Below, one piece after another: positions 832-37,031 of a DNA stretch of 38,839 nucleotides; position 1 is the first letter of the stretch; each line of letters begins with the position of its first letter. A model generated the notes under the pieces. That model made no database searches. It had not been told where the DNA came from and was given only the letters and a program-made list of their open reading frames with translations. Source of the stretch: Candidatus Undinarchaeota archaeon (GTDB lineage: Archaea; Undinarchaeota; Undinarchaeia; Undinarchaeales; UBA543). The translations under genes were made by a program, and so were the position numbers. The stretch spans positions 1-38,839 of the forward strand of contig CAZMMZ010000010.1 of assembly GCA_964567575.1 (NCBI GenBank), given 5' to 3'.

Positions 832-855
832 TCTAAAAAGTATGGTTTTATGAAG

Positions 856-893
856 TTTAAATAAGTTAGGAAAGCCCACAAAACTCTTAAATG
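856..893. promoter_or_regulatory. Back-to-back archaeal-type TATA boxes of a divergent promoter
   Basis: TTTAAATA at 856-863 (read on minus) lies 24 nt before the ATG at 831. CTTAAATG at 886-893 lies 20 nt before the GTG at 914. Confidence 0.6.
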
Positions 894-913
894 GTGAAAA
901 ACCACGGTTTAGT

Positions 914-3175: not shown

Positions 3176-3198
3176 GAAAAGAAAACAGCTTGATAACT

Positions 3199-3206
3199 CT
3201 TAAATA
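3199..3206. promoter_or_regulatory. Single TATA-like element centred between two divergent start codons
   Basis: CTTAAATA on plus is 22 nt before ATG 3229. The same bases read TATTTAAG on minus, 23 nt before ATG 3175. Confidence 0.6.
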
Positions 3207-3228
3207 CTTTCTGAAGGAAGCTTCGAAC

Positions 3229-4077
3229 ATGAGCTCATTGCTTCCAGAAAATTATGATTGGGGAATTTGTATCACCCATGATGTAGATCATCTTAGCCAT
3301 AACGAGCACAGTTTATGGGAAATCCTAAAATTCCAAGCAGTTTGCAAAATTGAAACATTTAGATTCAAAAGAAGTCTTTTGAGTTTCATGAAAGTTATAA
3401 AAAATTCTATATTCACAAAAAATGATTCCTGGGATTGTATTGAAGAAATGATAGAATTGGATTTCAAATATGCAATACCAAGCACTTTCTTTTTCGCTAT
3501 GCACCCAGGTCGTGGATTAAAATACACACGCGAACAAGCACGTGAGAAAATAAAGAAAATGCCTGCGAATTTTGAAATTGGAGTGCATGGACAATTTCCA
3601 AACAATGAAGCAGAAATCAAAAACGAATTTGCTGATTTGTACAATATGATTTCAAGACAACCTCGCGGAATTCGAATGCATTATCTGAAAACAAGTGAAA
3701 ACATGCGAGAGTATCTCAAGAATGCTGGTTATACTTACGACTCAACAGAATTTGACAAAAGCGGAGAATTGAAACAGGCTTACAAAACAAAAGAAGGTCT
3801 TGTGGAAATTCCAATTCATTTAATGGACACTTACATGTTCAGCCCATTCTATGATAATCTATCTGTTAAAAAAGCAAAAGCAAAAATGGAAGAATTTATT
3901 GCAAACGCGAAAGCAGAACACAAGATAATCAACATTATAATTCATCAACGATCAATTTCAGAAGACTTGCCACGCCAAAAAGAATTCTATGAATGGTTGG
4001 TTCAGAAAGTTTCTGATGATGTAAAATGCTGGAAAACTAGCTGCAAAGGAATTGCAGATAAATTAAATGGAAATTAA
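3229..4077 (+). CDS. Polysaccharide deacetylase-fold (NodB/CE4-like) protein
   Basis: ITHDVDH motif, STFFF, EIGVHG, RGIRMHYL, YDST, VEIP..LMD. Start moved from the track's TTG 3190 to ATG 3229 to fit the TATA spacing. Confidence 0.75.
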   Translation: MSSLLPENYDWGICITHDVDHLSHNEHSLWEILKFQAVCKIETFRFKRSLLSFMKVIKNSIFTKNDSWDCIEEMIELDFKYAIPSTFFFAMHPGRGLKYTREQAREKIKKMPANFEIGVHGQFPNNEAEIKNEFADLYNMISRQPRGIRMHYLKTSENMREYLKNAGYTYDSTEFDKSGELKQAYKTKEGLVEIPIHLMDTYMFSPFYDNLSVKKAKAKMEEFIANAKAEHKIINIIIHQRSISEDLPRQKEFYEWLVQKVSDDVKCWKTSCKGIADKLNGN

Positions 4078-5020
4078 AACTCTTGAGGAATCAAAAACAA
4101 TTTTAGAAGAATACGCACAGCTAGAAAATTCCACACCATTTCATTCTTATGAATGGTTAAAGTCCCTTGAAAAGAATCTAGGAACACCATGCAGCATTGC
4201 TGTTTTGGACAATGCAATTTGTCCATTGTTCAAAAAGAAAATGGGACCAGCTAAAATAAATTTCTCCCCAATCTTCGGAACTGAGACTGCATATATGGGA
4301 ATTATTTCAAAAGATGAAAACATTGATGGAAAATTAAAAGAATTGAAAAAAGATGGGAATTTTTTTATGATTCTTCCACCAGGAATTAACACAAATTTTG
4401 GAAAATTGGAAAAAGCTCAAACAATTATTACAAAATTCGACAAAGAAAGTTCTGAAGAGCATTTCAAATTAATTACAAAAGGTCATCGTTACTGCGTGAA
4501 CAAAGCAATCAAAGAAGGAGTAACAATTGAAGAAGATTATTCTGATGAAGCAATTGAGGAATACTTTGAACTTTTGAAAACAACATACGAATCAAATGGT
4601 TACACACCTTTACCAAAAGAATTCTACAAAGATATTATTCAAGGACTTCATTCTAAAAATAAAATAAAACTTTTACTAGCAAAACACAATGGGAAAACAA
4701 TAGGCTGCGCTGCATTCCCATACTCTGGTAAAAAGATCTATTACTGGACTGGCGCTTCACTTAAAGGAGAATATTCAAACTTGTATCCAAACAATGCAAT
4801 TCAATGGCACTTAATCAAATGGGCTTATGAAAATGGATTCAAAGAGTATGACATGCTCGGAGCAGGTATTGAAGGCATTCGAAAGTTCAAACTTGGTTGG
4901 GGTGGAGAAATTGTTGATTACACCCGCATTTATTCTAGTGGTTCATTGAAATTCGCTGCAACCATGTATTCAAAAATCGGAAGCGGGTTAAAGAGTAAAA
5001 TACGCTCTGGAATAAGATAG
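4067..5020 (+). CDS. FemAB/BioF2-like GNAT-fold protein
   Basis: RYCVNKAIKEGV, YYWTGAS, YPNNAIQWHLIKWAYENGFKEYDMLG, GIRKFKLGWGG, typical of FemAB-related GNAT domains. Confidence 0.8.
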   Translation: MEIKTLEESKTILEEYAQLENSTPFHSYEWLKSLEKNLGTPCSIAVLDNAICPLFKKKMGPAKINFSPIFGTETAYMGIISKDENIDGKLKELKKDGNFFMILPPGINTNFGKLEKAQTIITKFDKESSEEHFKLITKGHRYCVNKAIKEGVTIEEDYSDEAIEEYFELLKTTYESNGYTPLPKEFYKDIIQGLHSKNKIKLLLAKHNGKTIGCAAFPYSGKKIYYWTGASLKGEYSNLYPNNAIQWHLIKWAYENGFKEYDMLGAGIEGIRKFKLGWGGEIVDYTRIYSSGSLKFAATMYSKIGSGLKSKIRSGIR

Positions 5021-5037
5021 TTTTAGATTTCATTAAC

Positions 5038-5067
5038 TTTAAATAACAAATTTTTGAGTTTTTTAGT
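5038..5067 (+). promoter_or_regulatory. TATA box and 22-nt spacer before gmhA
   Basis: TTTAAATA at 5038-5045, then 22 nt, then ATG 5068. The spacer is nearly identical to the one at 21320-21341. Confidence 0.65.
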
Positions 5068-5616
5068 ATGACAATAGAAGAGCACGCTGAAAAACTATCA
5101 AATCTAGCTAAAGAAGCTGTTGGACTGAAAGAACCGATTATGAAAACTGTTGAGATGATAAAAGAAGCACTAGCAAGCGGGAACAAAGTATTATCCTGTG
5201 GAAATGGTGGAAGTGCTTCAGATTCAGATCATTTTATAGGCGAACTTGTTTGCAAGTTCAGAAAAGATCGCGCTCCTCTTGCAGGAATTTCACTTAATTC
5301 TAACACTGCTGTAATAACAGCAATTGCAAATGATTATGGATATGACAAAGTTTTCGCACGGCAAGTTGAAGCTCTTGGAAAATCAGGAGATGTTTTAATT
5401 GTTATTAGCACAAGCGGAACTTCAGAAAATGTTGTTAAGGCAGCGCAGAAAGCAAAAGAACTCGGAATAAAAACAATTGCACTCACAGGAAATGTAGGAA
5501 CACTAGCTGGAGAATGTGATCACAGTATCGCGATTTCAAGCGACGATGTTCCACGAATTCAAGAATTACATGCATTTACATTGCATGAAATTTGCGAGGC
5601 ACTGGATGAAAACTGA
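5068..5616 (+). CDS. gmhA: Phosphoheptose (sedoheptulose-7-phosphate) isomerase
   Basis: CGNGGSASDSDHFIGEL, TAIANDYGYDKVFARQVEALG, ISTSG, RIQELH...H. Confidence 0.93.
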   Translation: MTIEEHAEKLSNLAKEAVGLKEPIMKTVEMIKEALASGNKVLSCGNGGSASDSDHFIGELVCKFRKDRAPLAGISLNSNTAVITAIANDYGYDKVFARQVEALGKSGDVLIVISTSGTSENVVKAAQKAKELGIKTIALTGNVGTLAGECDHSIAISSDDVPRIQELHAFTLHEICEALDEN

Positions 5617-6514
5617 AGATGTTAATGTTTTGATTATTGGAGATTTAATGCTAGACCGTTATTTAATTGGAGATAATTCTAGAATGTCTCCTGAAGCCCC
5701 AGTTCCAGTTATTAAGAAAGAAGATACAAAAGATGTTCTTGGTGGCGCAGCGAATGTTGCAAAGAATATTGTTGAACTTGGAGCAAATGCAGAAATTATT
5801 GGAGTTATTGGAAATGAAGAAGAAGGAAATGCTTTGAAAAAACTTGCAGACAAAGCTGGAATCAAAACAGATGCAATAATTATTGACAATAACAGACCAA
5901 CAACTGTGAAAAACCGAATTGTCACAAAATCTTTCCAGCAACTTTTAAGAATTGATTCTGAATACACAGAAAGTATCACACCCGCTGATGAAGAAAAGAT
6001 AATCAACACAATTAATGAGAAAGCAAAAGACGTTAGCATCATAGTGCTTTCAGACTATGCAAAAGGTGTTATTACAAAAAATATTGTTGAAGCTGCAAAA
6101 CAAACTGGAAAGAAAGTTCTTGTTGATCCTAAACCAAGTAATGCTGAGCTTTTCAAAGGTGTTGAAATTATTACTCCTAATTTAAAAGAATCGCAAGAAA
6201 TTGTTAAGAGTGATGGTGCACCTGAAGAAATCGGAAAGAAATTAGCAGAACAACTTGAATGTAAAGTTCTGATGACAATGGGAGCTGAAGGAATGATGTT
6301 AATTTCTGATAAAGTTGAGCACATCCCTATTGAAGCAAAAGAAATTTTTGATGTAACGGGTGCAGGAGATACTGTAATCGCTGTATTGAGTGTGGCGCTT
6401 GCTTCTGGTCTTAATGAATTAGAATCAGCTAAGATTGCAAACAAAGCTGCAGGAATTGTAATTGGAAAACGTCGCGTTAATGAAATTAATTTGAAGGAGG
6501 AATTAGGATTATGA
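5606..6514 (+). CDS. hldA: D-glycero-beta-D-manno-heptose-7-phosphate kinase (HldE/RfaE domain I, PfkB family)
   Basis: [58 protein letters not shown]. Likely start is ATG 5606, overlapping the gmhA end; the track's 5516 start is an upstream extension. Confidence 0.9.
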
Positions 6515-6969
6515 AAATCCTTTCACGCGACGAAGCAAAAACAAAAATCGCAGAACTGAAAAGTTCTGGAAAGAAAATTGTTTTCACAAACGGTTGTTTT
6601 GATATTTTACATATCGGACATATTCGTTATTTGAAAGAAGCTAAAGCTCTTGGAGATGTTTTAATTATTGGACTTAATTCTGATGAATCGGTTAAGAAAT
6701 TAAAAGGAGAAGGACGTCCAGTACAATCTGAACAAGAACGAGCAGAAATTCTATCTGCTCTTGAAGTAATTGATTATGTTGTAATATTTAATGAAGATAC
6801 CCCAAAAGAAATCATACTTGAATTAAAACCAGACATCCAAGCAAAAGGCGGGGATTACAAAGAAGATGAAATCCCTGAGAAAGAAGCTCTGGAAAGTTAT
6901 GGTGGAGAACTCAGAATCTTGTCAAAAGTTGATTGTGATTCAACAACAGAATTAATTTCAAAACTTTAA
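6511..6969 (+). CDS. hldC: Heptose-1-phosphate nucleotidyltransferase (HldE/RfaE domain II)
   Basis: [18 protein letters not shown] (HxGH), [20 protein letters not shown]-terminal STT. Confidence 0.93.
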
Positions 6970-6970
6970 A

Positions 6971-8116
6971 ATGTCTAAATTAAAAATCCCAATTCATATT
7001 AGAATATTTGATTTTATTTTTGGGATTAAAGCAAAAGCGTGGGATTTGATTTTCGCTAACCACAAGCCGATTTTCGGACCGTTCCAAAACATTCTTGTAA
7101 TAAATTTAATGGGACTGGGAAATATGATATTCTCAATTCCATTAATGAAAACTTTGAGAAAGAATTACCCAGAAGCTCGAATAACTTTGCTTGCATCTTA
7201 TGCACCAGTGAAAGAATTAATGGCAGAGCACAAAGATCTTGTAGACAATATTATTTTCTTCAACTCAGACGAGCACAAAGGACTTTTCAAAAAAAAGAGA
7301 TTTATGAAAAATCTTGGGAAAAGAAAATTCGATCTTTCAGTTCTGACTTATCCAAGTGGAAAATTCAGTGGAATTGCTGCTTGGTTTATTGGAGCTAAAA
7401 AACGAATTGCTGTTGAACAGAAAATCGGATTGTTCAAAACAGGTGTACTAGCAACGAGCATTGTTAGGTCTAATAGCAAACATTGTGTTGATGTGAATCT
7501 CGATATAATGAAAGCACTTCATGCAAAAGATATTGACAATAGTATTGCTTTGAATGTTCCAGAAGAATCTGTAAAGAATGCAAACGAGTTATTGAAACAA
7601 CGTGGATGGTTGAGTGGTCAGAAACTAATTGGAGTTCATACAGGATCAGTACCAGAGACCTGGTACAAACAATGGAACCAACATGGTTTTGCTGAAGCTT
7701 GCACAACTCTTGCAAAAAAGCACAATGCAAAGATTATGATTGTTGGTGGACCAGATGAACTTCGCGCTGGTGAAAGCATTCACGCAATGATGAATGAGAA
7801 ACCAATTATGTTCTTTAATAAAACAATTCCTGAAACAGCTGCACTGATTAAGAATTGTAATGTTTTCATAAGCACAGATACAGGGCCGGGGCATATGGCT
7901 TCTGCATTAGGAATCCCAGTTGTTAGTATCTTTGGACCAACTGATTCAGAGAAAGCAAAACCATATGGGAAAAATGTTATTGTTGTGCAAAGTAAATTGG
8001 AATGTGTTCCTTGTATTGATTCATTTACAGCGAATTATTTTAAATGCAAAGAAAGAAAATGCCTTGTTGAATTAGAACCTGAGAAAATTGTTGAAGCTGT
8101 TGAGAAAATGATTTAA
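6971..8116 (+). CDS. GT9 family glycosyltransferase (ADP-heptose-dependent heptosyltransferase-like)
   Basis: GLGNMIFSIPLMKTLRKNYPEARITLL, KQWNQHGF, TDTGPGHMASALGIPVVSIFGPT, C-terminal CVPC...C. Confidence 0.88.
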   Translation: MSKLKIPIHIRIFDFIFGIKAKAWDLIFANHKPIFGPFQNILVINLMGLGNMIFSIPLMKTLRKNYPEARITLLASYAPVKELMAEHKDLVDNIIFFNSDEHKGLFKKKRFMKNLGKRKFDLSVLTYPSGKFSGIAAWFIGAKKRIAVEQKIGLFKTGVLATSIVRSNSKHCVDVNLDIMKALHAKDIDNSIALNVPEESVKNANELLKQRGWLSGQKLIGVHTGSVPETWYKQWNQHGFAEACTTLAKKHNAKIMIVGGPDELRAGESIHAMMNEKPIMFFNKTIPETAALIKNCNVFISTDTGPGHMASALGIPVVSIFGPTDSEKAKPYGKNVIVVQSKLECVPCIDSFTANYFKCKERKCLVELEPEKIVEAVEKMI

Positions 8117-9735
8117 CCCTCATGCGCAAGCATTTCGGAAACTTCTTTGTAATCACCGAAATCGTGAATCTCACTCCATCCTTTATTTATTTCAAGTGAA
8201 TTAACTGTCTCACCGTTGTCAATAAGTTTCTGAATTGCAGAAGCCAAACCCATTTTCTTATCTCCAGAATCTTTGTAGACTTGCATGAGCTTCCCCATAC
8301 CGGTTTTTGAGAACAAGGATATTCCAATGAATTCATAATTTGCTTTTTCCCTGTCAAGACCTTTTCCAAGATTCAAAATTTTATTTGTGCGATTAACACT
8401 AACTACTCGGTCACCATTTAATGGTGGTTTTTCGGCAATAACCAATTCAATATCTGAACGCTCTTCTGTTTTTCTAATTGATCGGTCAACCACAATAGTA
8501 ATGTCATCTTCAGTTTTGAGAAGTTTCTCCAAAATTTCATTATCGAAAATAATATCAGCAAAAAGTATGAGATTCTTGTTTGAGTAATTGTCACCAGCTT
8601 TTTCAATTGAATCCATTATGTGGCCTTGCTCATAATTTTCATTTACAATTAAATTAATATCATCAGCAACAATGTGCTCAGCTTTGTAACCGCCAACAAC
8701 AGTGATGTCATCAACACCACAGCGCTTCAATGATTCAACACTTCTTTGCAAAATTGATTTTCCATTAACATCTAACATAGTAAGTGGTCGGTCTTCAAGA
8801 AGTTCTTTCAAAGTTGGTTCAATACTTCTATCACCAGCTGCAGGGATAATTGCTTTAATTGGTTCGTTTGTTCTAACAAATTTATCCTGATCTTCTTTGA
8901 ATTTATCCATTTCCTGTAATGCAAAGAGGTCTTGCACGCTAGCGATTTTAGGTTCAATATTAGCAAGTCCGTTTTCTTTTATTTCTGCAAGAGTTTCATT
9001 AACATGTTTTACAATTGTTCGAATTCCTTGATTAGCATAAATAACAAGTTTCACACCATATTGTTTCATCTGCTCTTCTGTGAACGTTGGATAATTTGTT
9101 GGAACCAGAACAACTGGTTTGTAATTGTCCCAAGCTTTTAGGAAATCTTCAATTTCTTTTGGATCTGATTTCTTTGAATGAATAAAAATTGCATCTGCAC
9201 CAGCATCTGCATAAGCTCTTGCTCTTTTGAGTGCTTCTTCCTGGCCCCAGCCAGCAATCAACGCTTCAACACGAGCAATAACCATAAACTCTTCTGTTTC
9301 CTGTGCATTCTTTGCAGCCATTATCTTTCCAACGAATTCTGCAATTGGTGCAAGTTCTTGTTTCCCGCCTTCAAGCAAACTATTTGCTTTTGGGAATTTC
9401 TTATCTTCAATACAAACTGCAGAAATTCCAGCATCTTCAAATTTGCGAACCATTCTGATTACATTCATTGAATTGCCGTATCCAGTATCACAGTCTACAA
9501 CAACAGGAACTGTTGTTGAATCATTCATTGAAACTGCAGCTGCAAGATGATCAGACATTGTTAGAATATTAGCATCAGGAACTGCATGAGAAGCAGAAAT
9601 TTCTAAACCAGAAGCCCAAACACCATCAAAACCATTAAGCTCTACAAGTTTTGCAGTTAACCCATTGTGAGCTCCAACGATCCGTACCAGATCTTTCTTT
9701 TCAAAAAGTTCACGAAGTTTTTCTGCTTTTCTCAT
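8113..9735 (-). CDS. pepM: Phosphoenolpyruvate mutase fused to a C-terminal nucleotidyltransferase (NTP_transf/LicC-like) domain
   Basis: GAHNGLTA, GVWASG, DCDTGYG, and the diagnostic EDKx5NS motif (EDKKFPKANS) that separates PepM from isocitrate-lyase-family paralogues. From about residue 292: KAIIPAAG...ILQRSVESL...VVGGYK...LFADIIF...EIH. Confidence 0.95.
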   Translation of the reverse strand: MRKAEKLRELFEKKDLVRIVGAHNGLTAKLVELNGFDGVWASGLEISASHAVPDANILTMSDHLAAAVSMNDSTTVPVVVDCDTGYGNSMNVIRMVRKFEDAGISAVCIEDKKFPKANSLLEGGKQELAPIAEFVGKIMAAKNAQETEEFMVIARVEALIAGWGQEEALKRARAYADAGADAIFIHSKKSDPKEIEDFLKAWDNYKPVVLVPTNYPTFTEEQMKQYGVKLVIYANQGIRTIVKHVNETLAEIKENGLANIEPKIASVQDLFALQEMDKFKEDQDKFVRTNEPIKAIIPAAGDRSIEPTLKELLEDRPLTMLDVNGKSILQRSVESLKRCGVDDITVVGGYKAEHIVADDINLIVNENYEQGHIMDSIEKAGDNYSNKNLILFADIIFDNEILEKLLKTEDDITIVVDRSIRKTEERSDIELVIAEKPPLNGDRVVSVNRTNKILNLGKGLDREKANYEFIGISLFSKTGMGKLMQVYKDSGDKKMGLASAIQKLIDNGETVNSLEINKGWSEIHDFGDYKEVSEMLAHEG

Positions 9736-9773
9736 TTTAGTAAATTTAAAGTCCTGATTTCATATTAAAAGAG

Positions 9774-10322
9774 TTATGAAAGGTATTTTCTCATACGTTC
9801 TGTGATTTCCTCTGGAGAAACTTGAACTCTGCCAACTTCTCGCTTGCCTGCTTCAACCATTACGCGGATGAACACAGGTCCTGTGTATTCACTAACTAGA
9901 GCTGATTCAAGTTCTTCAATAGTTTCTGCTTTAACTGTGGTTGTATAACCAGCAGCCTTCGCCACATTCTCAAGCTCGATTGTTGGCGATACTGTTTTCT
10001 GCGAACCAGTTGATTCGTAAACACCATTATCAATTACAATATGAATAAAATTTTCTGGTTTTAGATTTCCAATTGTTGCAAGCGCTCCCATGTTCATTAA
10101 AACATTTCCATCGCCATCAAGAACTACAACTTTCTTTTTTGAATTCAATGCAATTCCTGCGCCAATTGATGGAGCCATACCCATTGATCCAATCATGTAA
10201 AAGTTTCTTTCTGAATCTCCAGTGTCGTGAAGCTCACGACTGATGAAACCATTTGCTGAGATAACAACTTCATCTCCTTTCAAAAGAGATATGATTTTTG
10301 AAACAGCTTCTTGTGTTTTCAT
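9774..10322 (-). CDS. Phosphonopyruvate decarboxylase beta (ThDP-binding) subunit, ComE-like
   Basis: NFYMIGSMGMAPSIG, ThDP motif DGDGNVLM...IDNG, YESTGSQ. Adjacent to pepM. Confidence 0.88.
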   Translation of the reverse strand: MKTQEAVSKIISLLKGDEVVISANGFISRELHDTGDSERNFYMIGSMGMAPSIGAGIALNSKKKVVVLDGDGNVLMNMGALATIGNLKPENFIHIVIDNGVYESTGSQKTVSPTIELENVAKAAGYTTTVKAETIEELESALVSEYTGPVFIRVMVEAGKREVGRVQVSPEEITERMRKYLS

Positions 10323-10798
10323 TCTAAAGACCCCTTCTTGAAAATCAAGGCAACTGGCTTTCCAGTTTCCTCAAGTTCTGTTGTTGCTTTGTCAACATCC
10401 CCAAGTGAGTCGAATATGAAATATGGAACCCCAATTGAATCAAGGAGTTTTGTCATTGACTCGCCCATGACCCAATGCTCTGGAGCATCTTCTTTTGTTT
10501 CTCCGCGCCAACTGATTAACATCAAGATTGGAATTTTGTAAAGCAAGTCAAGTGAAGAAAGAATATTAATTGAATTTCCAAGCCCAGAGTTTTGCATAAC
10601 CATTACTGGCTTTTTACCAGCAAGCTGCGCCCCTGTGCAAAATCCCAGTGCTTCATCCTCGCGAGTGTTTGCAATGTATTTGAAATCTTCTTGTTCTAAT
10701 TTCCTAATTAGAGTTTTGAATATAGAGCACGGTACTCCCGTGTAAAAATTAAATCCTTTTTCTGTAAGCTTAGCGAGAAACTCGCCTGTGTCTACCAT
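10319..10798 (-). CDS. Phosphonopyruvate decarboxylase alpha subunit, ComD-like
   Basis: FYTGVPCSIF, NTREDEALG, MQNSGLGNSIN, LISWRG...DAPEHWVMG. Confidence 0.88.
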   Translation of the reverse strand: MVDTGEFLAKLTEKGFNFYTGVPCSIFKTLIRKLEQEDFKYIANTREDEALGFCTGAQLAGKKPVMVMQNSGLGNSINILSSLDLLYKIPILMLISWRGETKEDAPEHWVMGESMTKLLDSIGVPYFIFDSLGDVDKATTELEETGKPVALIFKKGSLE

Positions 10799-10824
10799 TG
10801 TAAGAAAACTGTTTTGAAAACTGG

Positions 10825-10863
10825 TTATTAAGCTTATGATATAGTATTCATAACCTTAAAATA
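10825..10863. promoter_or_regulatory. Divergent promoter of the phosphonate genes
   Basis: TTATTAAG at 10825-10832 (CTTAATAA on minus) is 26 nt before ATG 10798. ATAAC-CTTAAAATA ending at 10863 is 23 nt before ATG 10887. Confidence 0.55.
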
Positions 10864-10886
10864 CCCAACTCAAACACCTTCTTTTT

Positions 10887-11843
10887 ATGGAACTGTTATT
10901 GCCGAAGCACATTATATTCGAACGAGGTGCACTTAGCAAATTACCAGACTTTGTGAGCGAAGGCAAGACACTTCTAATTACTTCTAAAGGAATGCTGACC
11001 CGATGGCCAGTAGACAAGATCAAAGAGCTCATTAAAGATATTGAAATTTTTTCAGATGTAGAGCCAGAACCAAGTATGGAAACTGTTGAGAAAGCAAAAG
11101 CAATTGGTGCTGACACAGTTATTGGATTAGGTGGTGGTTCAGTTCTTGATGTTGCAAAATATGTTGCAATGGAACTCAATGCAAAGAAAATTATGATTCC
11201 AACAACTGCAGGAACTGGAAGCGAAGTAACTCATGAATCTGTTTTGAAAATTGATGGAAAAAAGAAAGGAATCAAAAATGAGAAACTTTTATCAGATGTT
11301 GCAATTGTAGATCCTGAGCTTAGCTTGACAATGCCTGAGAAACTAACAGCATGCACTGGTATTGATGCGCTCGCTCATGCAGTTGAATGTTACGAATCAA
11401 AGAAAAGTAATATCATGATAAAATTCCTTGCAAAAGAAGCAATTGACATAATCAAATTAAATCTTAAGAAAGCTATTAGCGGAGATGAGCAAGCTCGCGA
11501 GCAAATGGCTTACGCAAGTATGGTAGCTGGAATGGCTTTTGGAAATTCAGGAACTGCACTCGGGCATGCACTTTCTTATCCACTTTCAAATCAAGGAATT
11601 CCACACGGCGAAGCAGTTGCAATTGTTTTACCTTATGCTCTTGACTTTAATGGAACAGATCCTGAACTTTCACAACAAATTAAAACTATAATTAAAGAAA
11701 CTGGATTGGGAGATGTGAAAATTAAAGGAACACCTGAAGAACTTGCAGAAGTTGTATTCCCAGACAAGAGGCATCTTGATAATAATCCAAAAGAAGTTAC
11801 AAAAAAAGATCTTGTTAAAATCTTCACAGAGATATTAAAATGA
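10887..11843 (+). CDS. Iron-containing (group III) alcohol dehydrogenase, probable phosphonoacetaldehyde reductase
   Basis: GLGGGSVLDVAK, IPTTAGTGSEVT, metal ligands DALAH, GHALSY, PHGEA. Divergent from ppd/pepM. The specific function is inferred from context (PhpC/FomC-type). Confidence 0.8.
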   Translation: MELLLPKHIIFERGALSKLPDFVSEGKTLLITSKGMLTRWPVDKIKELIKDIEIFSDVEPEPSMETVEKAKAIGADTVIGLGGGSVLDVAKYVAMELNAKKIMIPTTAGTGSEVTHESVLKIDGKKKGIKNEKLLSDVAIVDPELSLTMPEKLTACTGIDALAHAVECYESKKSNIMIKFLAKEAIDIIKLNLKKAISGDEQAREQMAYASMVAGMAFGNSGTALGHALSYPLSNQGIPHGEAVAIVLPYALDFNGTDPELSQQIKTIIKETGLGDVKIKGTPEELAEVVFPDKRHLDNNPKEVTKKDLVKIFTEILK

Positions 11844-12577
11844 AAGCAGTAATTGTTGCAGCAGGAAAAGGAACTCGGCTTTATGGTAATGATGCTGAAA
11901 TCCCAAAATGCCTTACTGAAATTGCTGATGGAAAAACTCTTCTTGATTTAATGATTGCCAGTTTGAACAAGCACGGAATCACAGACATTGCAATTGTCAC
12001 AGGATGGAAAAAAGAAATGATTCAAGAAAAACTTGGAGATTCTGTAAAATACTTTTTCAATCCTTTTTACAAAACAACAAACAACATGGCTTCCTTCTGG
12101 TTTGCAACAGAATTTGTTGATGGTTCTGACTTTCTTTATTTGCATGCAGATTTGCTTTATGATGATGAACTAATCAAGAAAGCTATGGAAAGTGAAGGAG
12201 ACATTAATCTGCTTACAGACAAAGATGATTTCAATGAAGAAGCAATGAAAGTGAGATTAGATGAGCAAGGAAATTTAATTGAATCCAGTAAAGCAATCCC
12301 TCTTGATGAAGCACATGGAGAATGGACAGGAATTATAAAATTCACTGCAAATGGTTGGAATAATTTACTTCCGGAAATAGAAACTCTGCTTTTTGAAGGA
12401 AAATTCATGGACTACGACACTTCAGCTTTGACAAATCTTGCTGAAAAGAAATTCCCAATCAAAATCACAAGCACTGAAAAACTGCCTTGGATTGAAATTG
12501 ACTTCCCAGAAGACCTTGAAAGAGCGAAGAATAAAATTTATAAAACCCTAATAGGAGATAAACAAGACAATGGCTAA
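11840..12577 (+). CDS. Cytidylyltransferase of the LicC/PntC/IPCT type (NTP_transf family)
   Basis: KAVIVAAGKGTRL, IPKCL, VTGWK, YKTTNNMASFW, YLHADLLYD, EWTGIIKF, WIEIDFPEDLERA. Confidence 0.85.
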   Translation: MKAVIVAAGKGTRLYGNDAEIPKCLTEIADGKTLLDLMIASLNKHGITDIAIVTGWKKEMIQEKLGDSVKYFFNPFYKTTNNMASFWFATEFVDGSDFLYLHADLLYDDELIKKAMESEGDINLLTDKDDFNEEAMKVRLDEQGNLIESSKAIPLDEAHGEWTGIIKFTANGWNNLLPEIETLLFEGKFMDYDTSALTNLAEKKFPIKITSTEKLPWIEIDFPEDLERAKNKIYKTLIGDKQDNG

Positions 12578-14069
12578 GATCTTACTTGTATATGCAAACA
12601 GTTTTATGGATAATTTAATACCGACTGGACTGTCTATCTTATCTGCTTGTTTGAAAAAAGCCGGACATAACACTAAACTTTTTGATACAACTTTTTACAA
12701 AACAGTAGAGCGCACAGGAGATGACGCCAGAATCGAGACCCTGCAAGTCAAAAGCACAAACTTGGGAGAGTATGGTCTTAATGAAAAAAAGACCAACATG
12801 GTTGATGATTTGAAAAAAATGGTTGACGAGTATCAACCAGACCTTATTGGATTATCAATTGTTGAAACAACACAAGAAATTGGATTGAAACTTCTCAATG
12901 GTATAAAAGATTATGATATTCCAAAAATTGTTGGAGGTGTCCAAGTAACAATGGCACCAGATTATATTATTTCACAAGATTGTGTTGACATGATTTGTGT
13001 GGGAGAGGGGGAAGGAGCATTTGTTGAACTCGCAAATGCAATTGAAAAGAAAGAAGATTACACTCATATCAAAAATTTATGGATTAAAAAAGATGGTCAA
13101 ATAATAAAGAACCCACTTAGACCATTAATTGATCTTAACACAGTACCAATGCAGGATTGGACAATTTACGAGGAAAAAAGATTATACAAAGCATTTGGTG
13201 GAAAGCACTGGGTCAGTGGACCAATTGAATTGAATCGGGGATGTGTTCACAGATGCGCTTATTGCTGCAATGCAAAACTTCAAGACTTGCACAAAGGAGA
13301 TAGATTCTATGCAAGAGAAAGAAGTTTGGATAAATTCTTTGAAGAATTAAAATATAGAGTGGACAAATATGGGTTGCAATATCCTTATTTTATTGCTGAG
13401 AATTTCATGCAGGGTGGCCCTGCAAGATTTGAAGAATTCTGCAAGAGATACAAAGAATTTAAATTACCATTTTGGTCACAGATGCGAGTTGAAACAATGA
13501 ACGATGATGTGGCTCGCAAATTAAAAGAAATTGGATGTGAAAGATTAAGCATGGGAGTAGAACATGGGAATTATGAATTTAGAAAAGAAGTGCTTAATAG
13601 AAATATCACAGATGAAACAATAATTAAAGCATTCAAATCCGTGAAAGACGCGGGCTTACTGGTTTTCGCAAATAATATTGTTGGTTTCCCTGGAGAAACC
13701 AGAGAACTTTATTTTGATACTGTTGAATTGAACAGAAAACTTGGAGTTAAAAGCATCATAAATGTTTTCTGTGCATACAGAGGAACACATCTACGAGATG
13801 TTGCAGTTGAGAGAGAATACATGGACAAGGACGCTGTGGCAGGAGATTACAGACGGGATGTTAAATTAAACATGCCGCATCTTACTGCAAAGCAGGTTGA
13901 AGGTTTGCAAAGAACCTTTTTACTTTATGTTAATCTTCCGAGAGAGTATTGGCCAGAGATTGAAAAAGCAGAAAAATTCGACGAAGAAGGAAATGCAACT
14001 TTCCAAAAATTAGCAAAACTGTATTTTGAAAAGTACGAACCAGGAGTTAAAAATGTCGAACAAAACTAA
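12570..14069 (+). CDS. Cobalamin-binding radical SAM protein (class B methyltransferase-like)
   Basis: N-terminal B12-binding-type segment (PTGLSILSACLKKAGH, PDLIGLS, IVGG), RGCVHRCAYC (CxxxCxxC), MGVEHG, NIVGFPGET. Confidence 0.88.
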   Translation: MAKILLVYANSFMDNLIPTGLSILSACLKKAGHNTKLFDTTFYKTVERTGDDARIETLQVKSTNLGEYGLNEKKTNMVDDLKKMVDEYQPDLIGLSIVETTQEIGLKLLNGIKDYDIPKIVGGVQVTMAPDYIISQDCVDMICVGEGEGAFVELANAIEKKEDYTHIKNLWIKKDGQIIKNPLRPLIDLNTVPMQDWTIYEEKRLYKAFGGKHWVSGPIELNRGCVHRCAYCCNAKLQDLHKGDRFYARERSLDKFFEELKYRVDKYGLQYPYFIAENFMQGGPARFEEFCKRYKEFKLPFWSQMRVETMNDDVARKLKEIGCERLSMGVEHGNYEFRKEVLNRNITDETIIKAFKSVKDAGLLVFANNIVGFPGETRELYFDTVELNRKLGVKSIINVFCAYRGTHLRDVAVEREYMDKDAVAGDYRRDVKLNMPHLTAKQVEGLQRTFLLYVNLPREYWPEIEKAEKFDEEGNATFQKLAKLYFEKYEPGVKNVEQN

Positions 14070-14787
14070 AAAGAAAAAGAAAATTGTAATACCCGATAAA
14101 GTGGGAGATCAAGTTATTGCACATGCTATCCATAGAAAATTATCTAATAGGATAACACGGATACTGTATCATACACCAATAACACCAAATCAGGTTTCCT
14201 GGATTGGATTTATTTTATGCGCATTCGCAGCACTAATGTTTGCTTTCGGGAATTACACCTGGCTCGTTATTGGTGCCTTTGTTCTAGAACTAGGAAATAT
14301 TTTTGACATGGTTGACGGGGATTTAGCAAGAGCCAAAAAAATGTTTTCAACATATGGTCACTGGCTAGATAGTACTTTAGATGCTATTTTGGATTTTGGA
14401 ATAATCATTGCAGTAACTTATTCTGTTTGGAGAGCACGACCAGAAATGCACGTATGGTTGCTTGGAATGTTTGCAACATACTTCTTAATAGAATTCTTCA
14501 TTATGTCAAGATTTTTCATTTTGCCATATGATTTACCACATAAAGAATTCAAAAAATCATTTGGGAAAATTGGAAAAAGTAAATTTTACAATCTTTTGTA
14601 TTATACAAGACAATATCACATTAACCTGATTGCAATATTCGCAATCCTGAATCAGTTTTACATATTGCTTTGGTGCTGGGCAATCATAGGAAACCTCTAT
14701 TGGGTGGCCTATACCATCTGGCAACACAAAACAATGAGAAAAGTATTTAAAGTAAAAGAGGGGAAAGGTAAAAATCATGGCAACTAA
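14053..14787 (+). CDS. CDP-alcohol phosphotransferase family membrane protein
   Basis: ITPNQVS and the full signature DMVDGDLAR-x8-G-HWL-D-STL-D, with several hydrophobic helices. Likely start is ATG 14053. Confidence 0.9.
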   Translation: MSNKTKKKKKIVIPDKVGDQVIAHAIHRKLSNRITRILYHTPITPNQVSWIGFILCAFAALMFAFGNYTWLVIGAFVLELGNIFDMVDGDLARAKKMFSTYGHWLDSTLDAILDFGIIIAVTYSVWRARPEMHVWLLGMFATYFLIEFFIMSRFFILPYDLPHKEFKKSFGKIGKSKFYNLLYYTRQYHINLIAIFAILNQFYILLWCWAIIGNLYWVAYTIWQHKTMRKVFKVKEGKGKNHGN

Positions 14788-15598
14788 AAACGAATTATGG
14801 GACACTGAAACACATGCAGATTCATTAGATTATGAAAGTAAGCAAAAGAAAAGTCGAATAAGAAATCGACCTTTGACACAAATTCTGTTTAATCTTTACA
14901 AACCAGGAGATAAAATTCTAGATGGTGGATGTGCAACTGGTGGATACTATATGGTATTAAATGAACAGTTCCCAGGAATAGATTATAGTGGAATTGATTT
15001 GACACCTGCAATGATCAGTAGAGCAACAAAGAATTATCCTGGTGGAAAATTTAAGATATGTAGTATTGCAGAGATAACCTATGAAGATAATACTTTTGAT
15101 ACTGTTTTTAGTAGCGATGTGAGAATGCATTTGAATCAAGAAAATTGCGATAAAAGTTTAACAGAATTATACAGAGTATCTAAAAAGAATCTTGTATTAA
15201 CAACTAGATTAAAAGAAAAGGGAGAAGAAATAGTTGACATAACAAGATCCTATCAAACACAGGAAAGTGGTCACGTAGAATATAATTTGTTCCTTTTGTC
15301 AAAATATATTCAGGACATCAAAAATCTAAAACCAACACCAAAGAAAATAACAATTGTTGGAGAATATAATGTTCCGCATTATGATGTTACTCTACCAAAC
15401 AATGAGAAAAATTATATTCGCGCAGATGTTACAATAGAAAAAGGCGATGGTAGCACAACAGAAACTGTAGTAGACATACAAATAAAAAATAAATTCTTTT
15501 CATTATTGAATGAACAAAGTAAAATTTTCGTAGTGAAGGTATTAAGAAAACTTGGACTGAAACCAACACCACAGAAAATGAAGAAAGAATTGGGGTAG
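14777..15598 (+). CDS. Class I SAM-dependent methyltransferase
   Basis: Motif I KILDGGCATG, YSGIDLTPAMI, YEDNTFDTVFS. Confidence 0.85.
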   Translation: MATKNELWDTETHADSLDYESKQKKSRIRNRPLTQILFNLYKPGDKILDGGCATGGYYMVLNEQFPGIDYSGIDLTPAMISRATKNYPGGKFKICSIAEITYEDNTFDTVFSSDVRMHLNQENCDKSLTELYRVSKKNLVLTTRLKEKGEEIVDITRSYQTQESGHVEYNLFLLSKYIQDIKNLKPTPKKITIVGEYNVPHYDVTLPNNEKNYIRADVTIEKGDGSTTETVVDIQIKNKFFSLLNEQSKIFVVKVLRKLGLKPTPQKMKKELG

Positions 15599-15613: not shown

Positions 15614-17485
15614 ATGGTCAAAAAAACAATAGCGATAATAGATACACAGAAAATAACATTCTCTCATTCAGTAAGAAGAGTATACGATTTTATTAAAGAT
15701 GTTGAAAATGATTTAAAATTTAAATTTATTAAATCAAAACTAAATAATCTTAGGAAGAAATATTCTGAATTTTTACCAATTGCTTTAGATTACAAAACAA
15801 GTCAAGAATTAAAAAAAAGAGGAATATCCCACAAATGCCATTGTGAAATAACAGAAGAATTTCTTGATCAAGAAGCATGGGATAGGGCTTATAAATTTTT
15901 TAAAGAAATGACCCCAGTAATTTCAAGTATTAATGAGATTATGACTTATTCTGGTCAGAAAATATGGGAACTCAATGAGGCCGAGGTATGGCGGTTTTAT
16001 CTGATACCAATCATAAAAACAATTGATTCTGCTTTAAAAATATTTGAAGAGGAAGATGTTGAACGATTAATAATTTATGATAACACTAGCATTTATCAAA
16101 AAACTTTCGAACTTGTAGCTAAAAATTTGGAAATAGAAGTAATTGATAAAACTCCAGCAAAAACAAAAATTGAAAACTCTTTGGAAAGAACTGCAATAAA
16201 TGTTATAACAAAAAAGAGTGGAGATACTTTGTTAGATTTACTTAAACCAGAAGCAAAAGATAAACCAAAATCAACAAAGAAAAAGATTGTGATTTTTTAT
16301 GATCACTGCACATTAAGAAATGTTTTACCATGGGCAAGCCAGATATCTGAAAACCATGATAAGATATGTGTTGGAATTGATTCAAAAGAAAAAGTAGAAG
16401 AAGAAATAAAAAAAGCAGGAATGCCTTATGAAAAATTACAGAATTATGCCACAGAAGAAACTATACAAAAATTAAAACAAATAAAAGAGAAACTAGCAGA
16501 CATTAATGAAAAAGCAAAATTAAGCAATTTCAAATATCGGGGAATTGATTTATGGCCAATTTCAAAAAAGATGTTTTCATTCCTTTTCAATGAACGTTTT
16601 CTAGAAACTTACATAAGAATTGAAACATTCAATAAAATGCTTGAATATGAAAAACCAGATCTTGTAATTACTGTAGATGATTGGAGCAGATACCCAAACA
16701 CATTATTAAAAATTTGCAAGCAGAAGCAAATCAAAACACTTGCTGTTAGATATGGAGTTTATTCTCAAGTACCAAAAGGTTACGAAATAACAGCGGACCG
16801 GGTTTTAGTATATGGAGAAGAATCAAAAAAGATTCTTACAATGTATGGACAAAACATAGGCAAGGCAGAAGTAACTGGACAAGCAGATGCAGATGGAACC
16901 GCAAATGCTCAGAAAGAAATTGAGATGTTTGAAAAATTAGGAATAGACAAAAACAAGAAACTTATTGTTTTTGCAGGAACTTGTGTTCCTGAAAACGGAA
17001 CCTACCACCCATATGATATTTTCTACAAAACAATAAAGAAATATCCAGAAGAACAAATAATAGTAAAAACTCATCCAGCAGAAACTCCGTATCTGCATGA
17101 AAAATTCATAAAGAAATATTCAATAAAAAATGTAAAGATAACAAATGATTATTTATTTGAATTATTGAAAAACTGTGACATGATAATTAATTTAACTTCA
17201 ACTGTCGCCACAGAAGCAATGACTTATGGGAAAAAAATAATTCACATTAATACACTAAAAGCACCAGACTATAGTTTCCCTCCAGAGAATGAAAATTATT
17301 TAAAATTAGTTTCAACTGAGGAAGAGTTGGATAAAACATTAAAGACTTTTTTAGAACAGCCAAATGAGGACAAAGAAGAAATAATTGAAGTATCAAAACA
17401 AACCATAAAAGAAAAGGGAGAACCAGTATACGCCGCCATAGTAAAAAATATAGAAGAGATGCTTGATACGACTCAAATTACATAA
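15614..17485 (+). CDS. Large putative GT-B-fold transferase (capsule-biosynthesis / TagF-like / sialyltransferase-like C-terminal half)
   Basis: EKPDLVITVDD, QIKTLAVRYG, ADRVLVYGE, EVTGQ, IIVKTHPAE, CDMIINLTSTVATEAMTYGKK. HP and S(T)xxxEA motifs resemble CMP/CDP-donor transferases. The N-terminal ~220 aa are unrecognised. Confidence 0.55.
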   Translation: MVKKTIAIIDTQKITFSHSVRRVYDFIKDVENDLKFKFIKSKLNNLRKKYSEFLPIALDYKTSQELKKRGISHKCHCEITEEFLDQEAWDRAYKFFKEMTPVISSINEIMTYSGQKIWELNEAEVWRFYLIPIIKTIDSALKIFEEEDVERLIIYDNTSIYQKTFELVAKNLEIEVIDKTPAKTKIENSLERTAINVITKKSGDTLLDLLKPEAKDKPKSTKKKIVIFYDHCTLRNVLPWASQISENHDKICVGIDSKEKVEEEIKKAGMPYEKLQNYATEETIQKLKQIKEKLADINEKAKLSNFKYRGIDLWPISKKMFSFLFNERFLETYIRIETFNKMLEYEKPDLVITVDDWSRYPNTLLKICKQKQIKTLAVRYGVYSQVPKGYEITADRVLVYGEESKKILTMYGQNIGKAEVTGQADADGTANAQKEIEMFEKLGIDKNKKLIVFAGTCVPENGTYHPYDIFYKTIKKYPEEQIIVKTHPAETPYLHEKFIKKYSIKNVKITNDYLFELLKNCDMIINLTSTVATEAMTYGKKIIHINTLKAPDYSFPPENENYLKLVSTEEELDKTLKTFLEQPNEDKEEIIEVSKQTIKEKGEPVYAAIVKNIEEMLDTTQIT

Positions 17486-36977: not shown

Positions 36978-37031
36978 TATTATCAAAAAAAATGTCAGGA
37001 AAAGTAGTTTTAAAGGTTATGGATTTTAGTG

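Follow-up and report, generated by a model that had tools for sequence, protein, structure and literature searches.

A genomic stretch from a low-GC marine archaeon (Candidatus Undinarchaeota) carries an operon through which a carbon–phosphorus (C–P) compound is probably made, activated with CMP, methylated and handed to a membrane-bound acceptor. We put the chances at about even that this is a phosphonyl-tailoring operon, in which a CMP-hydroxyalkylphosphonate would be the donor for a membrane-associated glycan acceptor. The most likely donor is the CMP conjugate of 2-hydroxyethylphosphonate (CMP-HEP) or of hydroxypropylphosphonate (CMP-HPP), and the most likely destination is a membrane-associated glycoconjugate. 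The genes present, their intact motifs, the operon structure, the fold, the pattern of conservation and the recurrent linkage are observations; we infer all substrates, the site of methylation and the acceptor. The host has a small genome of ~0.9 Mb and is not a hyperthermophile. The genome is 82% complete, and absences from it are provisional.

A probable phosphonate operon in a surface-glycan island

The window, the whole 39-kb stretch analysed (38,839 nucleotides), is a surface-glycan island with heptose and nonulosonate genes, glycosyltransferases, a Wzx-like flippase and a Dol-P glycosyltransferase. The features discussed here are as follows.

8113–9735, minus strand: PEP mutase (PepM) with a C-terminal PF12804 nucleotidyltransferase domain, a Ppm–PntC-type fusion (PF13714, PF12804, TIGR02320)
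9774–10798, minus strand: two-subunit phosphonopyruvate decarboxylase (Ppd; beta 9774–10322, alpha 10319–10798; TIGR03297 halves)
10887–11843, plus strand: Fe-dependent alcohol dehydrogenase (Fe-ADH), predicted phosphonoacetaldehyde reductase yielding HEP (PF00465/PF25137)
11840–12577, plus strand: LicC/PntC-type cytidylyltransferase, predicted to convert HEP and CTP to CMP-HEP (PF00483/PF12804)
12570–14069, plus strand: radical SAM enzyme of class B (B12-binding), predicted to be a Fom3-like methylase that acts on the CMP-phosphonate (PF02310 and PF04055)
14053–14787, plus strand: class I CDP-alcohol (CDP-OH) phosphotransferase with six transmembrane (TM) helices, predicted to transfer hydroxyalkylphosphonyl groups from CMP (PF01066)
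14777–15598, plus strand: SAM-dependent methyltransferase, accessory (Methyltransf_31/25/11 domains)
15614–17485, plus strand: 623-aa GT-B-like transferase of the TagF/KpsS/LIC12162 kind (weak PF05159, TIGR04396, BFO_1060)

In the ORF coordinates, the ends of the Fe-ADH, cytidylyltransferase, radical SAM, phosphotransferase and methyltransferase genes overlap in turn by 4, 8, 17 and 11 nt, and these five genes therefore form one operon. Translational coupling joins the middle three to the Fe-ADH gene ahead of them, which belongs to a complete PepM–Ppd–ADH pathway to HEP. The cytidylyltransferase and phosphotransferase, which the earlier note had paired, are part of this phosphonate pathway. 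Both enzymes are intact in signature, as that note had claimed, with the PntC catalytic residues kept in the former and the full CDP-OH motif in the latter, and the radical SAM gene is indeed the only gene between them.

In profile searches, the PepM fusion scored 204 bits against PF13714 and 319.9 bits against TIGR02320, and also matched PF12804; it carries an EDKKFPKANS motif at residue 110 and is 88–89% identical in the sister species G001 and G002. Its nucleotidyltransferase domain is without GxGTR and reads AAGDRS...DRPLTML, like other such fusions. The Ppd subunits matched the halves of TIGR03297 (Ppyr-DeCO2ase) together with TPP_enzyme_N/C domains. Fe-ADH, encoded between Ppd and the cytidylyltransferase, scored 148 bits against TIGR03405 (Phn_Fe-ADH), under the cut-off.

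This arrangement was seen again in two other species of the genus (in one of them, G002, without the radical SAM gene) and in metagenome contigs, and because of this recurrence we conclude that it is not due to chance. Orthologues of the phosphotransferase were found in no species beyond the three of the genus, where they always lie inside the phosphonate module, and ten other genomes of the order have none. The orthologue in G001, which has the radical SAM gene, is 79% identical; G002 is without that gene, and there the cytidylyltransferase adjoins a 49%-identical phosphotransferase. Throughout the genus the pair occurs only with PepM. A counterpart of the SAM methyltransferase was not found in G001 or G002, and similar methyltransferases are present in four metagenome loci (L114, L119, L120 and L129). 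In all three species, and in bacteria, the phosphonate module is embedded in glycan genes.

Predicted activation and modification of the phosphonate

PepM, Ppd and Fe-ADH would produce HEP, which the stand-alone cytidylyltransferase, and possibly also the PepM-fused domain, would convert to CMP-HEP. The best PDB match of the stand-alone enzyme was 6pd1 (Tde1415 PntC; 3e-13), followed by LicC. Its R13, K23 and K151 align with R15, K25 and K153, the catalytic residues of Tde1415 (PMC6697681); with this Arg/Lys/Lys set and its gene within a PepM operon, it is of the PntC/LicC type. Where PntC has the amine-binding Glu104, this enzyme has His102, a hint that it may prefer a phosphonate. The substitution tracks with Fe-ADH loci, and so with the HEP branch, across about four independent lineages.

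The radical SAM enzyme combines a B12-binding domain with a radical SAM core, the class B domain set of Fom3-type methylases, and has its CxxxCxxC motif as CVHRCAYC at residue 225. It scored above the cut-off of none of the NCBIfam families, with the PhpK and Sden_1168 P-methylase models far below cut-off; from domains and gene context we liken it to Fom3 and predict a methylase role. The enzyme would alter the phosphonate while it is bound to CMP, and the simplest change would be a C-methylation like that of Fom3, giving CMP-2-hydroxypropylphosphonate; Fom1/FomC/Fom3 chemistry runs via 2-HEP-CMP (PMC8158854). The family is widespread, with hundreds of relatives at 45–62% identity, and is not phosphonate-specific, since only 15 of its 33 loci of at least 10 kb (~45%) hold PepM/Ppd. 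A CDP-OH transferase gene follows the radical SAM gene within ~100 nt in six metagenome loci. PepM/radical SAM loci without a close CDP-OH transferase often have LicD or sulfatase-family genes, and one locus (L036) that has no PepM combines the radical SAM enzyme with CDP-OH transferases and a SPASM enzyme.

Because a search of the 82%-complete genome gave no FomD-type hydrolase, the CMP conjugate would be a donor, used by the six-TM phosphotransferase, rather than a transient intermediate.

The phosphotransferase and its probable acceptor

The phosphotransferase starts at 14026 (TTG) or, more likely, at 14053 (ATG), and has 244 aa. Its signature D85xxDGxxAR(x8)GxxxDxxxD is complete (DMVDGDLARAKKMFSTYGHWLDSTLD, residues 85–110), and it scored 47.4 bits against PF01066 (cut-off 22). 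The AF2 model (pLDDT 91.8) has an N-terminal juxtamembrane helix and six TM helices, with helices at residues 21–39, 45–65, 68–94, 100–128, 132–159 and 186–238. AF2299 was its best PDB match, ahead of DIPPS and then PIPS, with 27% identity to AF2299/DIPPS against 15–20% to PIPS, which uses a CDP-lipid; Foldseek gave a TM score of 0.69 to AF2299. The top NCBIfam match of both the phosphotransferase (80.6 bits) and the cytidylyltransferase (66.6 bits) was NF041135 (IPCT/DIPPS), whose equivalog cut-off of 580 neither reached. AF2299 and DIPPS do not process lipids (PMC4634129). As these nearest solved relatives use soluble CDP-alcohol donors, the analogy with IPCT/DIPPS drawn earlier has a basis in sequence.

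We also considered whether the phosphotransferase is simply the housekeeping archaetidyl head-group synthase, the case that the earlier note had set against its own proposal, and rejected this. Its second NCBIfam match, AIPS (NF040950), reached 70.1 bits against a cut-off of 180, its orthologues are confined to the genus, and the genome has a second PF01066 gene (contig C2) and a CarS-like gene (contig C1). A UbiA-family prenyltransferase gene, a candidate DGGGP synthase, is also present.

In the reaction that we favour, the hydroxyl of a polar, membrane-associated acceptor would attack the phosphonate phosphorus at the cytoplasmic face, releasing CMP. The most likely acceptor would be a sugar or glycan intermediate that is linked to a lipid and belongs to the surrounding island, and the phosphonate would end on the cell envelope. 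The genomic context favours such a glycoconjugate destination, which was not among the three outcomes proposed before. Against it, lipid head-group synthesis is the best-known role of the family, phosphonolipids are the predicted product of the closest gene set on record, and the phosphonate might be transferred by the TagF/KpsS-like neighbour instead, leaving another role to the CDP-OH transferase. Judged by its sequence, this neighbour is a plausible user of CMP- or CDP-activated donors; its atlas look-alikes are mostly PF04464 (Glyphos_transf), and its gene always adjoins that of the CDP-OH transferase (this genome, G001, G002 and metagenome locus L105). LicD, sulfatase-family and DUF402 genes were not found in the genome (82% complete), so the CDP-OH transferase and its TagF-like neighbour would be the only candidate users of a CMP-phosphonate.

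Transfer to archaeol had been proposed. In a broader version, a membrane lipid, whether archaeol or scavenged, would accept the phosphonate of CMP-HEP or CMP-HPP on its free hydroxyl and so gain a phosphonate head group; we judge this unlikely, though likelier than the other rivals. The phosphotransferase is membrane-embedded, the CarS-like and UbiA-family genes show archaeal lipid handling, and the enzyme trio matches the ‘Burkholderiales_CDP-OH / Group 1 phosphonolipid’ neighbourhood (PMC8942020; Mycetohabitans locus). Bacterial Group 1 clusters are usually predicted to make phosphonolipids, although none has been characterized from these either (PMC8942020). Lipid-acceptor CPT/EPT members, however, have three to four extra helices, and six-TM members take polar acceptors (PMC4634129). 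At 244 aa and six TM helices, the phosphotransferase is without the extra C-terminal helices and is not a Kennedy-type CPT/EPT; a PDB sequence search gave no CPT/EPT match to it, Foldseek matches to CPT1/CEPT1 were poor (E 0.09–0.4, TMq at most 0.51), and archaeol as acceptor fits such an enzyme poorly. The LPG-synthase-TM partner gene is absent, unlike in Group 1, and glycan genes surround the module in the examples from both archaea and bacteria. To our knowledge, archaeol does not normally occur in free form as an intermediate of the pathway, which also speaks against a lipid acceptor. The roles might instead be reversed, with CDP-archaeol as donor and HEP or HPP as acceptor, giving archaetidyl-hydroxyethylphosphonate, a non-hydrolysable PGP/AIP analogue. 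HEP mimics the alcohol-phosphate acceptors of AIPS, PIPS, PgsA and DIPPS, AIPS is the second NCBIfam match, a CarS-like gene is present and several PepM-linked examples are of the HEP type. We nevertheless regard this outcome as highly improbable: as first proposed, it overlooked that no cytidylyltransferase would be needed, yet two are kept, and that a radical SAM enzyme acting on CMP-HEP would require the missing FomD-like hydrolase to free HPP. By identity and fold the phosphotransferase is also nearer AF2299/DIPPS than PIPS, and in bacterial Group 1 clusters the same three enzymes go with AEP.

We give least credence to a soluble phosphonoester, formed from CMP-HEP and a small alcohol phosphate as a compatible solute or soluble intermediate. 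This would parallel DIPP or diglycerol-phosphate synthesis, and the nearest characterized relatives process no lipids (PMC4634129). The proposal had overlooked the 39-kb glycan context, a setting repeated in three species and in bacteria; moreover, inositol-1-phosphate synthase (MIPS, PF07994) was provisionally not found in the 82%-complete genome, the host is not a hyperthermophile and the DIPPS model scores lie well under cut-off. The chance also seems slight that the cytidylyltransferase and CDP-OH transferase are a phosphonate-independent CDP-alcohol module (CDP-glycerol, for example) that decorates the glycan, with the TagF-like or another enzyme handling the phosphonate. PepM is missing from many relatives in which a cytidylyltransferase and a CDP-OH transferase are paired or fused, and from a Sphingomonas capsule locus with such a transferase; L036 and L185 have no PepM nearby, and the TagF-like neighbour is a plausible CDP-donor transferase. 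Against this stand the translational coupling from Fe-ADH to phosphotransferase, the His102 that tracks with the HEP branch, the restriction of the pair to PepM-bearing loci in the genus and an operon without a gene for another alcohol phosphate precursor.

Relation to known systems

The locus varies a gene set that has been catalogued, but never characterized, in bacteria: its host is archaeal and its phosphonate would be of the hydroxy type. The Group 1 neighbourhood was described by Yu et al. 2013 and summarized by Li & Horsman 2022 (PMC8942020), its product being uncharacterized; we used Mycetohabitans rhizoxinica pBRH01 as the example for comparison. Both it and the window have a Ppm–PF12804 fusion, a second, stand-alone PntC, Ppd and a CDP-alcohol phosphotransferase of ~230 aa, so the enzyme trio of fusion, second PntC and CDP-OH transferase is not a novel combination, whereas the archaeal host is new. 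Also new are the HEP branch, with Fe-ADH where Group 1 has AEPT (AEP), and the widespread Fom3-like radical SAM family, often encoded directly before the transferase. AEPT, the 2OG-Fe(II) oxygenase and the LPG-synthase-domain protein of the Group 1 core were not found in the window, which adds the B12 radical SAM enzyme, the SAM methyltransferase and the TagF-like transferase, and differs in its glycan-island setting. The two phosphotransferases share ~30% identity over 108 residues and do not group in trees.

With the early fosfomycin pathway of Streptomyces (Fom1, Fom2, FomC, Fom3; PMC8158854, PMC6697681), the window shares the predicted route from PEP through PnPy, PnAA and HEP to CMP-HEP, after which a class B radical SAM enzyme takes over. 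It differs in its PepM-fused nucleotidyltransferase (C-terminal PF12804, against N-terminal PF01467 in Fom1) and in having neither the FomD hydrolase nor the Fom4 epoxidase, and its CMP conjugate is predicted to act as a donor rather than to be discarded. Archaeoglobus fulgidus AF2299 and IPCT/DIPPS (PDB 4o6m, 4mnd), the best sequence and fold matches of the phosphotransferase, share with it six TM helices plus a juxtamembrane helix and the signature motif. In both cases a cytidylyltransferase is paired with a transferase that takes a soluble CDP-alcohol donor, as predicted for the window. Their fused cytidylyltransferase-like domain is lacking in the window, where the two enzymes are separate and split by the radical SAM gene, and the context is phosphonate and glycan rather than solute synthesis. 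LicC/LicD and PntC tailoring systems (PMC6697681) likewise CMP-activate a small phospho- or phosphono-alcohol or amine destined for a surface glycan, but with LicD in place of a PF01066 membrane enzyme.

How CMP-activated phosphonates become attached to molecules of the cell surface has yet to be established for any type of cluster (PMC6697681, PMC8942020). The operon described here is a minimal case, with two candidate donor users in an archaeon of ~0.9 Mb, and sister species with and without the radical SAM step offer natural controls. If the radical SAM enzyme acts like Fom3, many uncultured lineages would decorate their surface with 2-hydroxypropylphosphonate; we know of this compound so far only as a fosfomycin intermediate. 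Tiny, host-dependent archaea would then be spending phosphorus and B12-dependent chemistry on their surface. A more speculative and quite improbable extension is that the CMP-hydroxyalkylphosphonate serves as donor and, through its free hydroxyl, as acceptor, the phosphotransferase priming a membrane-bound acceptor and the TagF-like enzyme polymerizing CMP-HEP or CMP-HPP into a teichoic-acid-like poly(hydroxyalkylphosphonate) ester chain on the DPANN surface. Such a chain would be a new class of C–P polymer, and the HEP-type phosphonate esters of marine high-molecular-weight organic matter might stem from it.

In trees, PepM-linked CDP-OH transferases do not form one clade, which counts against the reading favoured here. 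In its favour, a PepM–nucleotidyltransferase fusion, Ppd and ADH occur together with a CDP-OH transferase also in Omnitrophota (L019) and Pacificibacter (L083), where the modules lie in GT4/GT9/Wzm–Wzt/Wzy contexts.

Gene content of the phosphonate module and its surroundings

We compiled a gene inventory of the window from gene calls combined with Pfam and NCBIfam scans. The window is one entire contig (C10, 38.8 kb) of a 745-kb source assembly that is 82% complete, with a GC content of ~35%. The source genome is small, and its archaeal identity is confirmed by a partial SSU rRNA on contig C2 that matches the archaeal Rfam model best and by a CarS-like gene. The genes of the phosphonate module and its neighbour are listed below.

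Phosphonate module of the window (coordinates, strand, product and basis)
8113-9735, minus: PEP mutase (PepM) with a C-terminal PF12804 nucleotidyltransferase fusion; diagnostic EDKKFPKANS motif, Pfam/NCBIfam
9774-10798, minus: two-subunit phosphonopyruvate decarboxylase (Ppd); Pfam/NCBIfam
10887-11843, plus: iron-dependent alcohol dehydrogenase (Fe-ADH), divergent from PepM/Ppd; Pfam/NCBIfam
11840-12577, plus: stand-alone cytidylyltransferase (NT); R13/K23/K151 kept
12570-14069, plus: B12-binding radical SAM enzyme (rSAM); Pfam/NCBIfam
14053-14787, plus: CDP-alcohol phosphotransferase; signature D85xxDGxxAR(x8)GxxxDxxxD
14777-15598, plus: SAM methyltransferase (MT); Pfam/NCBIfam
15614-17485, plus: 623-aa GT-B-like transferase; weak Pfam/NCBIfam matches

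Gene calls and motifs confirmed the pairing of cytidylyltransferase and CDP-alcohol phosphotransferase described in the earlier note, with both signatures intact. Consecutive genes from ADH through MT overlap by 4, 8, 17 and 11 nt and therefore form a single translationally coupled unit.

The rest of the window, outside the phosphonate module, is devoted to surface-glycan biosynthesis. One set comprises ADP-heptose-type genes with GT9, and another consists of legionaminic/pseudaminic-type nonulosonate genes (NeuB, CMP-synthetase, PglD-like, DegT, PseB-like and 2-epimerase), accompanied by formyltransferase, FolD and HisF/HisH genes. GT2s, a Wzx-like flippase, an Agl23-like protein and a Dol-P-hexose transferase are also encoded. 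The heptose genes (5068-8116 and 35776-36986) are bacterial in style, yet their host is archaeal; they comprise two GmhA-like genes, GmhB, HldE-like kinase and adenylyltransferase as separate genes and a GT9 heptosyltransferase, and are kept at 65-84% in sister species.

Family and distribution of the CDP-alcohol phosphotransferase

We placed the transferase relative to AIPS, ASS, PgsA and CPT using HMM and PDB scores as a proxy for a labelled phylogeny. By sequence, its closest solved relatives are AF2299 (2e-22) and DIPPS (7e-12), followed by PIPS, PgsA and PSS. The AlphaFold model (pLDDT 91.8, pTM 0.87), which has a juxtamembrane helix and six TM helices, matched AF2299 (TM 0.69, 26-27% identity), DIPPS and then PIPS, with CPT1/CEPT1 as poor matches (E 0.09 or worse). 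The donor-substituent pocket is hydrophilic in AF2299 and a hydrophobic groove in PIPS. The bifunctional IPCT/DIPPS model, whose cut-off is 580 bits, was the top NCBIfam match of both NT (67 bits) and transferase (81 bits); both are IPCT/DIPPS relatives and not members. A search of the 82%-complete genome for an inositol-phosphate synthase found none.

A deep search identified the transferase as an isolated lineage in a large family, with one match below 1e-30; the wider family includes stand-alone ~230-aa proteins and NT-fused ~440-aa proteins. Trees of 301 and 68 CDP-OH transferases did not recover the deep branching order, PepM-linked members fell in at least five groups, and the trees support no claim of a single origin or donor lineage for these members. 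We also rejected as a long-branch artefact the joining of the genome's second PF01066 sequence with that of L083, a Pacificibacter MAG locus.

This second PF01066 gene (C2:1208-1801) is weakly AIPS-like, and the genome has, besides its CarS-like gene, a UbiA-family prenyltransferase gene (candidate DGGGP synthase). Orthologues of the window's transferase are confined to the genus, where two further species carry them (79% and 49% identity); 10 more genomes of the order and a wider archaeal sample yielded none. The possibility that the phosphotransferase is the housekeeping head-group synthase, which the earlier note had set against its own reading, therefore fails. PepM has an equally narrow spread plus three unrelated archaea (6/151). 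On C2, a 130-nt tRNA match with a probable intron (L187, G000:C2, 987-1116) has the partial 16S rRNA on one side and the second PF01066 gene on the other.

Of the two other species, G001 has PepM-NT, Ppd, ADH, NT, rSAM (88%), transferase (79%) and the 623-aa protein, without MT. G002 (G002:C9, L015/L016) carries the phosphonate module without rSAM or MT, its NT being followed directly by the transferase (47-49% identical) and then the 623-aa protein. This leaves PepM-NT, Ppd, ADH, NT, CDP-OH transferase and 623-aa transferase as the core, to which rSAM and MT are accessory. The greater divergence of the transferase where rSAM is absent is compatible with, though no proof of, an enzyme acting on the modified group, and G002 set beside the window at 12570-15598 provides a natural comparison with and without rSAM.

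Proposed nucleotide activation, radical modification and transfer

NT residues R13, K23 and K151 align with catalytic R15, K25 and K153 of the phosphonate cytidylyltransferase Tde1415, in which Glu104 and Glu196 contact the amine of AEP (PMC6697681); the window's NT has His102 and Asp193 at the two Glu positions. We compared the His102 position across 18 stand-alone NTs (~215-300 aa) from clustered related loci. NTs from loci holding Fe-ADH have His there in all but one case (L137, Ala), the His-bearing NTs with Fe-ADH representing about four independent lineages (the window genus, L107, L123 and L124); where no ADH was seen in the locus, the residue was Asp, Glu or another. This tracking lends weak but independent support to HEP as the NT substrate, and His in this column may be a specificity marker. 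The PepM-fused NT domain (8113-8880) lacks the GxGTR signature. Its motif AAG(D/K)...(L)ADRP..ML(D)(V/I)NGK recurs in the fusions of G001, L123 and L129, out of five further PepM-NT fusions set beside it; the L146 and L139 fusions lack the AAG(D/K)...DRP motif, and L139 has GVGKR.

The rSAM family is large and well conserved compared with the transferase, comprising hundreds of proteins at 45-62% identity, with relatives in Nanoarchaeota, Theionarchaea, Omnitrophota and Scalindua, none bearing a functional name. A metagenome scan with this family yielded 80 loci. PepM/Ppd is encoded in 22 of them, among these 15 of the 33 that reach 10 kb or more, and a CDP-OH transferase in 13. The transferase lies no more than ~100 nt after rSAM, as in the window, in six loci (L105, L115, L122, L145, L151 and L177). 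Fe-ADH, stand-alone NT and PF01467 domains recur, mostly amid sugar genes. In gene context, the rSAM loci agree with the logic of Fom1/Fom2/FomC/Fom3, in which the substrate that Fom3 methylates is 2-HEP-CMP and not free HEP (PMC8158854). In many metagenome loci (for example, L107, L111, L123, L145 and L157-L162), B12-rSAM paralogues stand side by side in groups of two to five, 23-37% identical among themselves, which suggests several successive radical modifications. A role for the rSAM as a PhpK-type P-methylase was rejected, with scores far under the cut-off and no route to a phosphinate.

A search of the 82%-complete genome gave no FomD-type DUF402 gene, so CMP-HPP, if made, is presumably consumed as a donor. 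LicD and sulfatase-family (AlkP) genes were likewise not found in this genome. Among rSAM/PepM loci without a close CDP-OH transferase, LicD occurs in eight and sulfatase-family genes in six, compared with none of seven close-transferase loci. Three related loci with a divergent transferase (L145, L151 and L177) have LicD too, and L083 has a weak LicD-like gene; we therefore discarded strict mutual exclusion. The loosely complementary pattern suggests that it is the transferase which passes the group from donor to acceptor.

The 623-aa protein adjoins the CDP-OH transferase in all three species of the genus, and distant ~600-aa proteins accompany the rSAM family elsewhere. Its look-alikes by features and predicted structure are mostly PF04464 (TagF-type), PF05159 (KpsS/KpsC) or LIC12162. 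By these and by weak Pfam/NCBIfam matches, its likeness is to TagF-type CDP-glycerol glycerophosphotransferases and to CMP-Kdo transferases of the KpsS/KpsC type, and it could act as the nonulosonate transferase, as a further phosphonate transferase or as a polymerase.

Related loci and the probable acceptor

Searching related loci for CDP-OH transferase relatives with a narrow alignment (A2), we found a PF01467 cytidylyltransferase-PepM fusion, Ppd, Fe-ADH and CDP-OH transferase together in two of 80 genome loci, both bacterial. In L019 (Omnitrophota MAG) the set is flanked by GT4, GT9 and methyltransferase genes, and in L083 it adjoins Wzm/Wzt, the LicD-like gene, a sugar transferase and a Wzy_C protein. 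L046, L073 and L185 were dropped as PepM loci, being NT-domain matches only. L185 (G041:C89, 2700-5000), from another archaeal genome, has no PepM visible on its 5.8-kb contig and groups NT, CDP-OH transferase (37% identity) and an Fe-ADH-like gene.

A PLSDB match identified a CDP-OH transferase on a Mycetohabitans megaplasmid, neighboured by a 2OG oxygenase, an LPG-synthase-domain protein, PntC, a PepM fusion, Ppd and AEPT. The arrangement corresponds to the 'Burkholderiales_CDP-OH / Group 1 phosphonolipid' neighbourhood, which, like the window's module, has two PntCs, one of them fused to Ppm, and whose product was never characterised (Li & Horsman, PMC8942020). The enzyme trio is therefore already a known, predicted kind in bacteria.

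We propose that the operon would make HEP and then CMP-HEP, that methylation would occur on nucleotide-bound HEP only in the two species with rSAM, and that the CDP-alcohol phosphotransferase would esterify the phosphonate onto the hydroxyl of a membrane-associated polar molecule in surface-glycan assembly. We give this whole chain roughly even chances. The reported glycerol ester of HEP in Glycomyces glycans plays no part in this estimate. The main rival, a free phosphonolipid, draws on the Group 1 neighbourhood, and we consider it unlikely. AF2299 and DIPPS process no lipids and have a small, hydrophilic donor-substituent pocket, and six TM helices are associated with soluble or polar acceptors, lipid-acceptor enzymes carrying three or four extra helices (Clarke et al., PMC4634129). 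By analogy, the family placement favours a soluble CDP-type donor, of which CMP-HEP would be one, and a polar acceptor group. A reaction of CDP-archaeol with HEP is a minor alternative; the enzyme resembles AF2299 and DIPPS more than PIPS, which uses a CDP-lipid. The kinship with DIPPS would suit a soluble ester, also a minor reading given the surrounding glycan genes.

Another minor reading, a phosphonate-independent module, sits beside a core that includes PepM-NT and Ppd in the genus and draws on loci elsewhere. A 402-aa CDP-alcohol phosphotransferase of the same branch (L189, Sphingomonas taxi plasmid STP1, 7563-8771) lies in a capsule polysaccharide locus with GT1 genes, export proteins and an ABC permease, and with no phosphonate genes or PepM; the transferase family thus extends beyond phosphonates. 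The rSAM family, too, is present without PepM, for example in L125-L136 and L036. In the latter (Nitrospinae MAG, 600-11500), a B12-rSAM 37% identical to the window's lacks a PepM within 19 kb, and the pairing of rSAM and transferase may therefore serve non-phosphonate substrates as well. L036 also encodes two 400-aa CDP-OH transferases bearing N-terminal extensions, a CMP-sugar-synthetase-like protein, a SPASM rSAM, an aminotransferase and a 574-aa DUF6716 protein.
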